A program made the position numbers and the translations under genes. The notes under the pieces were generated by a model. It was not told where the DNA came from, searched no databases, and saw only the letters and a program-made list of their open reading frames with translations. Positions 28,655-32,809 of a DNA stretch of 64,000 nucleotides are shown here, piece by piece (positions within the stretch are counted from its first letter, which is position 1; each line of letters begins with the position of its first letter). The DNA comes from Soehngenia sp. GTDB lineage: Bacteria; Bacillota; Clostridia; Tissierellales; Tissierellaceae. The stretch spans positions 3,817 through 67,816 of the forward strand of contig JAGXFX010000018.1 of NCBI GenBank assembly GCA_024637045.1, written 5' to 3'.

Positions 28655-29137
28655 ATGAGTGAAAAATTAATGAATGCATTGAATGATCAGTACAACTTTG
28701 AAATGCTGTCAGGGTATTATTACCTGGCGATGGCATCATACTTTGAGTCAGAAAACATGAGAGGCATGTCACATTTCATGGTAGCGCAGGCAAAGGAAGA
28801 GTATGAACATGCCATGAAGTTCTATGGTTTCATCAACGATATGGATGGAAGGGTTACAATGCAGGCAATACCTGAACCAAAGAATGATTACAGTTCATTC
28901 CTTGAGGTTTTTGAAACAGCACTTGGGCATGAAAAGAAGGTAACAGGAAGAATTTATGATCTGTTGAAATTGGCTGAAGAGGAGAAGAATTATCCGACAG
29001 TACAATTCCTGCAATGGTTTGTTTCAGAGCAGGTTGAAGAAGAGAACACTATGAAGGATATAATATTTAAGCTTGAGGGAGTACAAAATCAATTCCACGG
29101 TCTGATGATGGTGGACAGAGAGCTAGGATCAAGATAA
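28655..29137 (+). CDS. ftnA: Non-heme ferritin
   Basis: LNDQYNFE...YLAMASYF, Q..EE..HA.K, HEKKVT..I, FLQWFV.EQVEEE. Confidence 0.93.
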   Translation: MSEKLMNALNDQYNFEMLSGYYYLAMASYFESENMRGMSHFMVAQAKEEYEHAMKFYGFINDMDGRVTMQAIPEPKNDYSSFLEVFETALGHEKKVTGRIYDLLKLAEEEKNYPTVQFLQWFVSEQVEEENTMKDIIFKLEGVQNQFHGLMMVDRELGSR

Positions 29138-29206: not shown

Positions 29207-29235
29207 TTGACAATTACATGCAAGTATTCTAATAT
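29207..29235 (+). promoter_or_regulatory. SigA-type promoter of the ArsR-CoADR operon
   Basis: TTGACA-17 bp-TAATAT. Confidence 0.65.
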
Positions 29236-29263: not shown

Positions 29264-29554
29264 ATGAAATTTGATAGAGCAGTTTTGGAAGAAAAGGCCG
29301 CAATCCTTAAATTGATATCCCATCCAATAAGACTATGCATACTCAGGGGGTTGTCTGAAGAAGGAGAAAACAATGTTTCCTACATTCAGGGATGTCTTGA
29401 TGTACCACAGTCTACATTGTCACAACATTTGGCAAAGTTAAGACTTTCTGGTGTTGTGAAGGACGAGAGAAGGGGAACAGAGGTTTATTATTCCCTGACG
29501 GATGATGAAGTTAGAAGAATCATTAAGCTATTATTTAAATCAGAGGAGGAATAG
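29264..29554 (+). CDS. ArsR/SmtB-family repressor
   Basis: SHPIRLCIL, QSTLSQHLAKLR..GVV..ERRG.EVYYSL. Confidence 0.92.
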   Translation: MKFDRAVLEEKAAILKLISHPIRLCILRGLSEEGENNVSYIQGCLDVPQSTLSQHLAKLRLSGVVKDERRGTEVYYSLTDDEVRRIIKLLFKSEEE

Positions 29555-29556
29555 AA

Positions 29557-31296
29557 TTGGGTAAAAAAGTATTGATCGTTGGTGGAGTAGCCGGAGGAGC
29601 TACAGCATTGACAAGACTGAGAAGACTAGATGAAAAAGCAGAAATTATCATGTTTGAACGAGGTGAGTACATTTCTTTCGCAAACTGTGGACTACCATAC
29701 TATATTGGTGGGACGATCGAAGAAAGGGATGCATTAATTGTAAATACTCCAGAGGCAATAATGAAGAAGTACAATGTTGATGTAAGGAATTTTTCTGAAG
29801 TGACATCAATAGACAAAGAAAAAAAGACGGTACAAGTCAAGAATAGCAAATCAGGTGAAACATACACAGAAAACTATGACTACTTACTGCTTTCAACTGG
29901 ATCAAGCCCAATAAAACCCCCTATTCCTGGAATTGATTCTCCAAATATCTTTAGTCTTTGGAACATTCCAGATACAGATATGATAAAGAATCATATTGAT
30001 TCAACCAAGCCTAAGAGAGCTATTGTAGTTGGTGGCGGATTTATCGGTCTTGAGATGGCAGAGAATCTACACGATCAAGGTCTGGATGTATCTGTAGTGG
30101 AAATGCAGGATCAGGTTATGGCACCAATTGATTTTGAAATGGCACAAATTGTTCACGAGCATATGAAATCAAAAGGAGTACATCTACATCTAAATGATGG
30201 AGTCAGCACTTTTGAATACGAGGATGGAGTTACAACAATTACACTTCAATCTGGTGAAAAAATTGAAGGAGACATTATTATCCTTTCAATAGGGATAAGA
30301 CCCAACGGTGAGCTGGCAAAAGCAGCAGGTCTTGAGCAAAATCAACGCGGAGGCATAATAGTTGATAAAACTTTAAGAACTTCAAATGAATTTATATATG
30401 CCATTGGTGATGTAATTGAAGTTGAAGACTATGTAAATAAAATACAGACCATGATTCCTCTTGCAGGACCAGCAAACAAGCAAGGTAGAATTGTAGCAAA
30501 CAATATTCTTGGTGGAAAAAAGGATGAGTACAAGGGAACGCAAGGTACAAGCATTGCAAAAATATTTGATCTTGATGTCGCAAGTACTGGGGTAAATGAA
30601 AAAACCCTAATAAGACTTGGAAAAGAATACAAGAAAGATTATGATATGGCTTTTATCCATCAGAATTCACATGCAGGTTATTATCCTGGAGCACTTCCAA
30701 TGACCATGAAGCTTTTATTTGACATGGATGGGAAAGTTCTGGGAGCTCAAATTGTTGGTTATGATGGAGTTGACAAGAGAATCGATGTTCTTGCGACTGC
30801 AATAAGATTTAATGGAAAAGTTGAAAATCTGATAGATCTTGAGCTTGCATATGCACCTCCTTATGGATCAGCAAAAGATCCAGTGAATATGATTGGATTT
30901 GTTGCAGATAACATTTTAAACGGAATGACAGAGCAAGTACTTTGGAGGGAGCTTGACGAGCTTGATAAGGAACAATACAAGCTACTTGATATAAGAGAAG
31001 ATGTTGAAATGGAAATAGGAACAATTGAAGGCTCCATCCACATTCCATTAAATGAGCTTCGCGACAGACTTGATGAACTGGACAAAGAAAAGACATACGT
31101 TGCATTTTGTGCTGTTGGATTAAGAGGATATCTTGCAGAGAGGTCATTAAAAGACAATGGTTTTAAAGCAATGAATCTTGCAGGTGGATTTAGTACCTAC
31201 AAGAATATGTATATGCAGAGTGAAAATCCAACAAGTCAGGATCCAAAGTCATTTGATGACTCAGGAGTGGCGGGAACAAATGTGGGAAAGCAGTAA
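29557..31296 (+). CDS. CoA-disulfide/persulfide reductase with C-terminal rhodanese domain (579 aa; TTG start)
   Basis: GGVAGGA, SFANCGLPY (CoA-binding Cys), GGGFIGLE, LAYAPPY, rhodanese LLDIRE...FCAVGLRG. Confidence 0.92.
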   Translation: MGKKVLIVGGVAGGATALTRLRRLDEKAEIIMFERGEYISFANCGLPYYIGGTIEERDALIVNTPEAIMKKYNVDVRNFSEVTSIDKEKKTVQVKNSKSGETYTENYDYLLLSTGSSPIKPPIPGIDSPNIFSLWNIPDTDMIKNHIDSTKPKRAIVVGGGFIGLEMAENLHDQGLDVSVVEMQDQVMAPIDFEMAQIVHEHMKSKGVHLHLNDGVSTFEYEDGVTTITLQSGEKIEGDIIILSIGIRPNGELAKAAGLEQNQRGGIIVDKTLRTSNEFIYAIGDVIEVEDYVNKIQTMIPLAGPANKQGRIVANNILGGKKDEYKGTQGTSIAKIFDLDVASTGVNEKTLIRLGKEYKKDYDMAFIHQNSHAGYYPGALPMTMKLLFDMDGKVLGAQIVGYDGVDKRIDVLATAIRFNGKVENLIDLELAYAPPYGSAKDPVNMIGFVADNILNGMTEQVLWRELDELDKEQYKLLDIREDVEMEIGTIEGSIHIPLNELRDRLDELDKEKTYVAFCAVGLRGYLAERSLKDNGFKAMNLAGGFSTYKNMYMQSENPTSQDPKSFDDSGVAGTNVGKQ

Positions 31297-32048
31297 CCCC
31301 GGAAGGAGATTCCATTAAGCTTAATGCTTGTGGACTATCCTGTCCGGGGCCTATAATTCAGGTTGCAGAGAAAATGAAGAGCTTAAGTGACGGTCAGATT
31401 CTTGAAGTTTCTGCAACAGATCCCGGTTTTATAAGTGACATCAGGGCTTGGTGCAGAAATACCAGTAACACATTTATATGTGATGAGAAACTTGACACAA
31501 AATGGGTTGTTGAAATTCAGAAGGGTTTATCAAAACAGGCTATCGCAAAAAAAGAGTCAGCTCCGGCAGGAATCAAATCCAAAGAGAAGACCATGGTAGT
31601 CTTTTCAGGAGAGCTTGACAAGGCAATAGCATCATTTATCATTGCCAACGGTGCAGCTGCGATGGGTAACAATGTTACAATGTTCTTCACTTTCTGGGGT
31701 TTGAATGTTCTTAGAAAACCAGAACCTGTGAGCGTGAAAAAGGACTTCATGGCTACAATGTTCTCAAAGATGATGCCAAGAGGAAGTAAAAAGCTGGGAC
31801 TATCTAAGATGAATATGGCTGGAATGGGTCCTAAGATGATCAGAAAAGTAATGGCTGATAAAAACATTTCATCTCTTGAAGAACTTATAAAGACAGGTAT
31901 GGATTCTGGTATAAGAGTCGTAGCCTGCCAAATGTCAATGGATGTAATGGGAATAACCAAGGAAGAACTGATTGAAGGAGTAGAAATTGGTGGAGTAGCA
32001 ACATATCTAGACGCTGCTGATGACTCAAATGTAAATCTGTTCATATAG
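31290..32048 (+). CDS. TusA/SirA + DsrE/DrsE_2 sulfur-carrier domains, in the -1 frame relative to the upstream reductase
   Basis: Frame is open from 31260; the TusA motif LNACGLSCPGP lies upstream of the first ATG (31374); DsrE part VFSGELDKA...FFTFWGL...ACQMS. Confidence 0.85.
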   Translation, partial: AVTPEGDSIKLNACGLSCPGPIIQVAEKMKSLSDGQILEVSATDPGFISDIRAWCRNTSNTFICDEKLDTKWVVEIQKGLSKQAIAKKESAPAGIKSKEKTMVVFSGELDKAIASFIIANGAAAMGNNVTMFFTFWGLNVLRKPEPVSVKKDFMATMFSKMMPRGSKKLGLSKMNMAGMGPKMIRKVMADKNISSLEELIKTGMDSGIRVVACQMSMDVMGITKEELIEGVEIGGVATYLDAADDSNVNLFI

Positions 32049-32061
32049 AATTGATTAATGG

Positions 32062-32091
32062 AGGCAGTTCACTTGTGGACTGCCTTTTTTT
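32062..32091 (+). terminator. Terminator after the TusA-DsrE ORF
   Basis: AGGCAGTTCA/TGGACTGCCT plus T-tract. Confidence 0.8.
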
Positions 32092-32263: not shown

Positions 32264-32809
32264 ATGAACGCAATGACACAAGACAACTTAAGATCAGCTT
32301 TTGGTGGAGAGAGCCAGGCTCACATGAGATACAGAATATGGGCTGACAAGGCTACAAAGGATGGATTTCCAACAGTAGCTAGATTATTTATGGCAACATC
32401 AGATGCAGAGCAGGTTCATGCAACATTACACTTTAAAGCACTAAGAGATGTTGAAGGAGCTTTCTCAGTAGTATCAGGTGGAGAATTCGGACTTGGATCA
32501 ACATCACAAAACCTTGCAGGTGGAATTGAAGGTGAAATGCATGAAGTAACTCAAATGTATCCAGCTTACATACAGGTAGCAGAAATGCAGGGAGAAAAGG
32601 AAGCAATCAACGCAATGAGATATGCAGTTGCAGCTGAGCAGGTTCATGCAGATTGCTATACCCTGGCAAAGAAATTTGTCGATGGAGGCAAAGACCTTGA
32701 GGCAAAAGTAATTGAACTGTGTCCGGTATGTGGTTATCTTACACTAACTGGCGAAGAAGACACTTGTCCTATATGCAACGCTAAAAGATCAGTATTTGTA
32801 TCTTATTAA
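32264..32809 (+). CDS. rbr: Rubrerythrin
   Basis: AFGGESQAHMRY, EQVHA, IEGEMHE, C-terminal CPVCGY...CPIC. Confidence 0.92.
   Translation: MNAMTQDNLRSAFGGESQAHMRYRIWADKATKDGFPTVARLFMATSDAEQVHATLHFKALRDVEGAFSVVSGGEFGLGSTSQNLAGGIEGEMHEVTQMYPAYIQVAEMQGEKEAINAMRYAVAAEQVHADCYTLAKKFVDGGKDLEAKVIELCPVCGYLTLTGEEDTCPICNAKRSVFVSY

Follow-up and report, generated by a model that had tools for sequence, protein, structure and literature searches.

We analyzed a 64,000-nucleotide (nt) stretch of contig JAGXFX010000018.1 (assembly GCA_024637045.1), from here on the window, which comes from a genome of the genus Gudongella (family Tissierellaceae). In this stretch, an open reading frame (ORF1) for a CoA-disulfide/persulfide reductase with a rhodanese domain (CoADR-RHD) ends just where the sequence for a TusA and a DsrE domain begins in the -1 frame. 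Our analyses make it highly likely that TusA-DsrE is produced by programmed -1 ribosomal frameshifting at positions 31284-31290, giving rise to two isoforms of 579 and 830 amino acids (aa); the slippage itself, its efficiency, and the importance of the isoform ratio are what we infer from comparing sequences. The junction combines the features of an X_XXY_YYZ frameshift site, i.e. an in-phase heptamer, a predicted downstream structure, a frame break that is conserved and constrained, and an apparently functional downstream frame that lacks a start codon. The elements at the junction are as follows.

29557-31296, plus strand: ORF1 in the 0 frame, CoA-disulfide/persulfide reductase plus rhodanese, 579 aa, with the C terminus ...NVGKQ
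31284-31290, plus strand: slippery heptamer G_GGA_AAG, in phase with ORF1, the proposed site of the -1 shift
31294-31296, plus strand: 0-frame stop codon TAA, one codon past the heptamer
31297-31349, plus strand: stem-loop of 53 nt beginning 6 nt 3' of the heptamer, the proposed frameshift stimulator
31290-32048, plus strand: segment of the -1 frame read after the shift, comprising the linker AVTPEGDS, TusA (CPGP), and DsrE_2; 252 aa and stop codon
29557-32048, plus strand: predicted trans-frame CoADR-RHD-TusA-DsrE protein, 830 aa, with the same linear layout as the proteins that other Bacillota encode in a single ORF (820-850 aa)

In the mechanism that we propose, ribosomes would translate the CoADR-rhodanese frame up to G_GGA_AAG, and those that remain in frame would terminate one codon on and release the 579-aa reductase-rhodanese. 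A fraction would pause at the GC-rich stem-loop 6 nt downstream, and tRNA-Gly and tRNA-Lys would slip back by one base, from GGA AAG to GGG AAA. The shifted ribosomes would then read AVTPEGDS, TusA, and DsrE in the -1 frame and complete a protein of 830 aa with the layout of the single-ORF Bacillota enzyme; its predicted Glu-C junction peptide is SGVAGTNVGKAVTPE. The adjacent 0-frame stop codon and the missing cognate tRNA-Lys(CUU) probably raise the efficiency of the shift. With its X_XXY_YYZ heptamer, spacer, and hairpin, the mechanism is canonical. A preliminary description of the same DNA had proposed this shift, and all coordinates on which it relied (heptamer, stop codon, open -1 frame, first ATG, stem arms, and an upstream AGGAG) hold, as does its arithmetic, by which a shift at the heptamer joins 578 and 252 residues into 830 aa.

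The frame break and the slippery heptamer

In Pfam, ORF1 matched Pyr_redox_2 (PF07992; E value 4.6e-66), Pyr_redox_dim (PF02852), and Rhodanese (PF00581; residues 467-550), and it contains the N-terminal redox Cys motif ISFANCG (SFANCG) as well as the rhodanese active-site Cys motif FCAVGLRG. It scored 396.1 bits against the NCBIfam CoA-disulfide reductase profile NF010037 (cut-off 394) and 522 against TIGR03385, which is under the cut-off of 578.8 for that profile. The combination of oxidoreductase fold, dimerisation domain, and rhodanese Cys is that of a predicted CoADR-RHD enzyme. Reading in the -1 frame stays open between 31260 and 32048; this frame matched TusA (PF01206; E value 3e-19) and DsrE_2 (PF13686; E value 8e-67), and contains the Cys motifs LSCPGP (the TusA CPxP motif) and ACQMS (DsrE_2); because it scored below the cut-offs of both the DsrE2 and the TusA profile of NCBIfam, the assignment is at the family level only. 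The eight linker codons that precede TusA in the -1 frame read [A/V]-V-T-P-x-G-[D/E]-x and are colinear, residue for residue, with in-frame orthologues, and the G-E/D-T stretch within them is common to in-frame Soehngenia.

To place the break in an evolutionary context, we used the window genome and 15 other species genomes of the same genus (16 in total). The sequence [G/C]TGGGAAAG is present at the junction in all 16 genomes, and the frame is broken in 13 of them. Three further frame-broken sequences (L118, L257, and L258) came from metagenome and assembly collections; a metagenome scan for further Gudongella loci contributed two only. As anticipated in the preliminary description, the break coincides with a conserved heptamer: GGGAAAG is identical and in phase in 16 of the 16 frame-broken sequences, and it is also kept in three in-frame species that have an inserted G (see below). 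The 0-frame stop codon follows within zero to one codons, as CAG TAA in eight frame-broken sequences and as a TAG abutting the heptamer in the other eight. In NCBI, JGI, ENA, and Logan, we identified 15 distinct protein clusters at 90% identity with lengths of 578/579 aa and C termini of [V/L]GK or [V/L]GKQ. Because the break recurs across species and in independent assemblies from NCBI, JGI, ENA, and Logan, an error in the reads and a mutation specific to one strain are both excluded as its cause; the preliminary description had named each of these as an outcome that would refute recoding.

Outside the genus, the same domains are typically encoded in one frame. We compared ~150 loci of other Bacillota, of which almost all encode a fusion of 820-850 aa in a single frame, in line with the statement in the preliminary description that many Clostridia encode the fused protein. 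None of these ~150 loci has this heptamer break; six exceptions to the single-frame rule (L072, L121, L129, L163, L164, and L255) either differ in architecture or are broken in a poly-A run, and none of them has the heptamer or the hairpin.

Constraint on the junction was assessed in a trans-frame codon alignment of 747 codons from 15 species. The locus L004/L031 (G013 contig), which has a run of 10 Ns just 3' of the 5' stem arm, was excluded from codon and structure analyses. The gene-wide minimum of synonymous diversity lies in the 9-codon window encoding NVGKAVTPE (0.143 compared to a mean of 0.528; standard deviation, 0.074), and all eight windows with the lowest values overlap the heptamer; thus, the suppression of synonymous variation that had been expected at the site is at its strongest there. 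A second cluster of low synonymous diversity corresponds to NACGLSCPG, i.e. the 3' stem arm. Since the residues directly 5' of VGK are highly variable, the constraint acts at the nucleotide level. The arrangement at the junction goes beyond chance, as judged from the fold and the rare codons of the stem (see below) and from the rarity of the heptamer, with in-phase G_GGA_AAG occurring only 53 times in the ~507,000 codons of long ORFs in the genome of the window.

All 13 frame-broken species genomes have an intact downstream frame, with the catalytic Cys motifs kept. Among the frame-broken species, the median ratio of nonsynonymous to synonymous substitution rates (dN/dS) is 0.055 for TusA-DsrE at a saturated dS of ~1.9, in agreement with the 0.043 of the upstream enzyme. 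Being under such strong purifying selection, TusA-DsrE is not a pseudogene. From the preceding stop codon in the TusA frame to the catalytic Cys codon, no ATG, GTG, or TTG was found in 13 of the 13 frame-broken species. The first ATG of this frame, at 31374, was rejected as a start codon because it lies 3' of the CPGP motif, and it is TTT in L014. The ATT at 31314, which the preliminary description had put forward as a fallback start behind AAGGAG, did not survive the comparison either; this codon drifts among ATT, ATA, ATC, and GTT across frame-broken species, as expected of a codon for Ile/Val in the interior of a gene.

The stem-loop and the natural frame restorations

In the predicted stem-loop, CCCCGGA (31297-31303) pairs with TCCGGGG (31343-31349). 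The minimum free energy (MFE) is -30.8 kcal/mol, whereas dinucleotide-shuffled sequences gave -15.3 ± 2.8 kcal/mol and none of 200 folded as well (z -5.47). The 3' arm is formed by CCG GGG from the CPGP motif of TusA, and both arms use codons that are rare in this genome of 38% GC, with ACC accounting for 17% of Thr, CCG for 11% of Pro, and GGG for 10.5% of Gly codons; the joint expectation of the stem codons ACC, CCG, CCG, and GGG is ~2e-4. For the homologous 53 nt of 18 Gudongella sequences, we obtained a mean MFE of -28.0 kcal/mol (range -22.2 to -36.7), compared to a mean of -10.6 kcal/mol for 77 outgroups, among which the best folders are high-GC genomes. In the consensus for the hairpin, 87% of cells are paired, compared to 33-55% in slid controls. 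At its spacing of 6 nt, this modelled structure, which is conserved in the genus and missing from the outgroups, falls within the 5-9 nt range for stimulatory structures. A search of Rfam gave no family for the hairpin, the sole match being at chance level (E value 0.46). On the 5' side of the heptamer, the AGGAG at 31263-31267 is present 16 nt upstream as had been reported, but we rejected the role suggested for it as a Shine-Dalgarno (SD)-like stimulator since relatives do not keep it (three species have GGAATGG) and a spacing of 16 nt is long.

The reading frame is unbroken at the junction in four Gudongella sequences, which arrived at this state in two ways. In G007, G014, and G015, an extra G lies directly 3' of the heptamer (GGGAAAG-G-CGGT[A/G]ACC). 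In L259 (L259:2150-2260, on a contig of Logan SRR29564169), an extra A is found in the A-run of the heptamer, resulting in GTG GGA AAA GCA ATT ACC (GGGAAAAGCA). Both types of restoration encode VGK-A[V/I]TP, the very peptide that a -1 shift at G_GGA_AAG is predicted to yield. We also observed that at the in-frame G-insertion loci L007, L009, L013, and L260, a -1 shift would lead to termination after 7-10 codons.

In a phylogenetic tree, the in-frame trio with the G insertion is nested among frame-broken species, L259 is placed inside the clade of the window itself with a support of 100/100, and the frame-broken L257 nests within the in-frame group of the G type. In approximately unbiased (AU) tests, monophyly was rejected for the frame-broken sequences (p = 4e-5) as well as for the in-frame sequences (p = 1.2e-8). 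We therefore rejected a scenario with a single origin and a single reversion of the frame state, as L257 and L259 force at least four frame-state changes on the tree. Based on their placement in the tree, the G and A insertions are independent events. In L259, the hairpin has decayed, the CPGP codons now being the common CCA GGT and the MFE being -15.7 kcal/mol; this loss fits the expectation for a hairpin that would be kept only while slippage is needed.

Alternative explanations for the downstream frame

Several observations weigh against frameshifting at the heptamer. First, the in-frame species with the G insertion retain the heptamer and most of the hairpin (-23 to -26 kcal/mol), and this retention needs either a recent reversion or a second function. 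Second, the preliminary description had expected a conserved and covarying hairpin; the conservation is borne out within the genus, but the covariation is modest, with double changes in two pairs only and a score that was reached by 1 of 500 shuffles, and the overlap of the stem with conserved coding sequence limits it. Third, the frame-broken genomes G001 and G005 carry a tRNA-Lys(CUU) gene, and the absence of this gene was therefore rejected as a strict requirement for the break. Finally, an SD-like GG[A/G/T]GA lies 5-7 nt 5' of the Ile/Val codon, inside the hairpin, and this arrangement would also suit the coupling of termination and reinitiation.

Such termination-reinitiation is the only serious alternative to frameshifting. 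According to this explanation, the ancestral gene underwent fission, and termination at the stop codon of ORF1 melts the hairpin and exposes GGAGA, allowing reinitiation at the ATT at 31314 and synthesis of a separate TusA-DsrE protein of 244 aa. A hairpin that sequesters a ribosome binding site beside an upstream stop codon is a classic layout for coupling, the hairpin and the position of the stop codon are both conserved, the SD-like purine run lies 5 nt 5' of the ATT, and the Pfam TusA profile begins exactly at this Ile codon. We nevertheless consider coupling improbable. The Ile/Val codon has never become ATG, GTG, or TTG despite saturated synonymous divergence, and Soehngenia, an outgroup with the gene in frame, has GGAGA as well, in the form of Gly-Glu codons. 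Because of its presence there, GGAGA represents inherited coding sequence and not a newly evolved ribosome binding site. Moreover, coupling leaves unexplained that GTG/CTG GGA AAG, the most constrained spot in the gene, is synonymously invariant and that both natural frame repairs occurred at the heptamer and kept the GK-A peptide.

A correction at the RNA level would be a way to obtain the fused protein without ribosomal slippage. Transcriptional slippage yields alternative dnaX products in some bacteria, and RNA polymerase slipping in the GGG or AAA run could add a base to some transcripts; the natural revertants are just such +1 G and +1 A variants. Productive transcriptional slippage needs runs of roughly 7-9 identical bases, and the GGG and AAA runs of three bases are far too short. 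A conserved hairpin 6 nt downstream and an X_XXY_YYZ heptamer in the right phase are features of slippage by ribosomes and not by the polymerase, and we regard slippage by the polymerase as very improbable.

We attach next to no probability to a non-functional break, with TusA-DsrE as an untranslated pseudogene remnant or the break as an assembly or sequencing artefact and with only the 579-aa enzyme being made, for although a one-base deletion in GGG or AAA would create the same break, some relatives are without TusA-DsrE entirely (L254), and the two pieces are annotated separately in public records, the break recurs in 13 species genomes and many independent assemblies, the downstream frame is intact throughout at the low dN/dS and saturated dS given above, all catalytic Cys motifs are kept, and additional constraint acts on the heptamer and the hairpin.

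Lysine tRNAs, known recoding systems, and the locus

In E. coli, slippage at A_AAG owes its efficiency to the absence of a tRNA-Lys with a CUU anticodon. The genome of the window has two tRNA-Lys(UUU) genes and no tRNA-Lys(CUU) gene, and tRNA-Lys(UUU) alone is available there to decode the shift codon A_AAG. Comparing the syntenic cluster Gly(CCC)-His(GUG)-Lys(UUU)-[Lys(CUU)]-Leu(UAG) among loci L227 (G015), L242, L250, and L252, we found that the CUU slot is empty in the genome of the window (G000 contig C15:102193-102530), where the Lys(UUU) and Leu genes lie 3 nt apart in the middle of a 200-kb contig. The same deletion is found in six other frame-broken species, and the gene is present in three of the three in-frame species of the G type and in most other genera of the family. 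This distribution fits a selective link between the frame break and loss of tRNA-Lys(CUU), but the correlation is only suggestive and is phylogenetically non-independent.

MnmA 2-thiolates the wobble uridine of tRNA-Lys(UUU), and the genome of the window encodes an MnmA homologue. In the lambda G/GT system, the shift rate (~4%) depends on tRNA-Lys(UUU) being 2-thiolated, and under-thiolation leads to more shifting (PMC3296357). Motivated by the MnmA homologue and by this dependence on thiolation of an identical heptamer, we also considered that the frameshift may act as a sensor of sulfur status, such that the share of enzyme tethered to TusA-DsrE would track the capacity for sulfur transfer. 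A related idea concerns evolution: as the frame state has flipped at least four times in the genus and the in-frame species of the G type kept the heptamer and hairpin, both frame states may make both isoforms with inverted default ratios. We view these ideas as rather unlikely. Because the heptamer is identical to that of lambda G/GT, a connection between recoding and sulfur status can be tested directly.

The lambda G/GT site shares with the Gudongella site not only the heptamer G_GGA_AAG but also a 0-frame stop codon immediately downstream and a short product in the 0 frame that is extended in the -1 frame. It differs in that it belongs to a phage structural module, whereas the site described here lies in the gene for a chromosomal redox enzyme, and the proteins are non-homologous. 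To our knowledge, no strong downstream hairpin has been described for lambda G/GT, whereas the Gudongella site has a stem-loop of -28 kcal/mol at 6 nt. The dnaX gene (tau/gamma; A_AAA_AAG) is similar in being a cellular gene with two isoforms per mRNA, a tRNA-Lys at A_AAG, and a downstream stem-loop that stimulates the shift; as Tsuchihashi and Brown reportedly found in 1992, the dnaX shift relies on there being no tRNA-Lys with a CUU anticodon. In dnaX, however, the shift truncates the protein and the long form is the 0-frame product, whereas the shift in Gudongella would extend the protein, and dnaX has an upstream SD stimulator, of which no conserved counterpart exists at the Gudongella site. 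Should the retained site of the in-frame Gudongella species with the G insertion be active, these species would parallel dnaX, and they might make a short CoADR-RHD isoform by slippage in the manner of dnaX gamma. In E. coli copA(Z) and carboxysome csoS2, a -1 shift in an ordinary homeostasis or metabolic gene gives short and long isoforms of a multidomain protein; there, frameshifting gives the short product, and the heptamers and gene families are unlike the case described here, in which frameshifting would be required for the ancestral full-length protein.

Viruses and mobile elements commonly use programmed -1 frameshifting. Among ordinary bacterial genes, we know of only a handful with a -1 frameshift, e.g. 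dnaX, copA, csoS2, and cdd. Full-text literature searches identified no published description of recoding in the CoADR/rhodanese/TusA/DsrE family or in Gudongella. If frameshifting occurs as proposed, it adds a metabolic enzyme that handles reactive sulfur to these genes, and the full-length ancestral protein would be obtained only by slippage, at a site that has persisted through the radiation of the genus Gudongella. The genus also comes with built-in natural controls in the form of two independent in-frame revertants, one of which is without the hairpin, and a presence/absence polymorphism for tRNA-Lys(CUU). In current annotations, the locus is represented by a 578/579-aa oxidoreductase and a truncated TusA-DsrE protein beginning past the catalytic cysteine, and function predictions for the locus in these genomes are therefore wrong.

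The gene is part of an operon led by a gene for an ArsR-type regulator. The remaining elements of this operon are listed here.

29207-29235, plus strand: promoter-like site (TTGACA, 17 nt, TAATAT) 5' of the operon, a consensus match only
29264-29554, plus strand: regulator of the ArsR/SmtB family, 96 aa, first gene of the operon (NCBIfam NF033788, 83.8 bits; cut-off 55)
32060-32087, plus strand: hairpin and T-run resembling an intrinsic terminator at the end of the operon

The regulator scored below the cut-off of the BigR-like profile of NCBIfam. ORF1 and TusA-DsrE form a single predicted transcription unit; we detected no terminator between them, the sole terminator being located 3' of TusA-DsrE. 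A consensus scan placed one promoter-like site 5' of the ArsR gene. The best sigma-70-like match of the region (31615-31642, plus strand; TTGACA, 16 nt, TATCAT; 11/12) sits in the TusA-DsrE linker, 3' of the TusA domain, and was rejected as an internal promoter. Across the region, promoter-like matches are at chance level (13 compared to 9.6 ± 3.1).

The gene order of the ArsR-led operon is the same in L257, L258, and L259. A ferritin-like gene (28655-29137) lies upstream of the operon and a rubrerythrin gene (32264-32809) downstream; both neighbours are also found in L257 and L258, and L260 has the downstream rubrerythrin gene only. These shared genes suggest that the operon lies in a conserved neighbourhood for oxidative or sulfur stress. 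The single-ORF CoADR-RHD-TusA-DsrE proteins of Soehngenia, Tissierella, and Caloranaerobacter (820-850 aa) have the same four domains and catalytic cysteines, and those of close relatives are likewise encoded with an ArsR-type regulator upstream and rubrerythrin downstream; they differ in having one frame, no heptamer, and a CPGP motif in common codons.

Other arrangements of the same domains were noted during these comparisons. In L255, a JGI metagenome contig from another genus encoding an enzyme with 70% identity, the frame between rhodanese and TusA-DsrE is broken in a run of ~11 As (L255:1750-1790; GAT A11 CAGATGA), which may reflect a mistake in assembly, slippage during transcription, or a further site of recoding. 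L072 has a similar A10 run just 5' of the TusA part. In Anaerosalibacter, Dethiothermospora, and relatives (P0058-P0067, P0075, and P0099), some of the proteins (661-668 aa) terminate behind the TusA domain, and their ORF contains no DsrE; in L254, TusA-DsrE has been lost and the gene for CoADR-RHD is followed directly by rubrerythrin.

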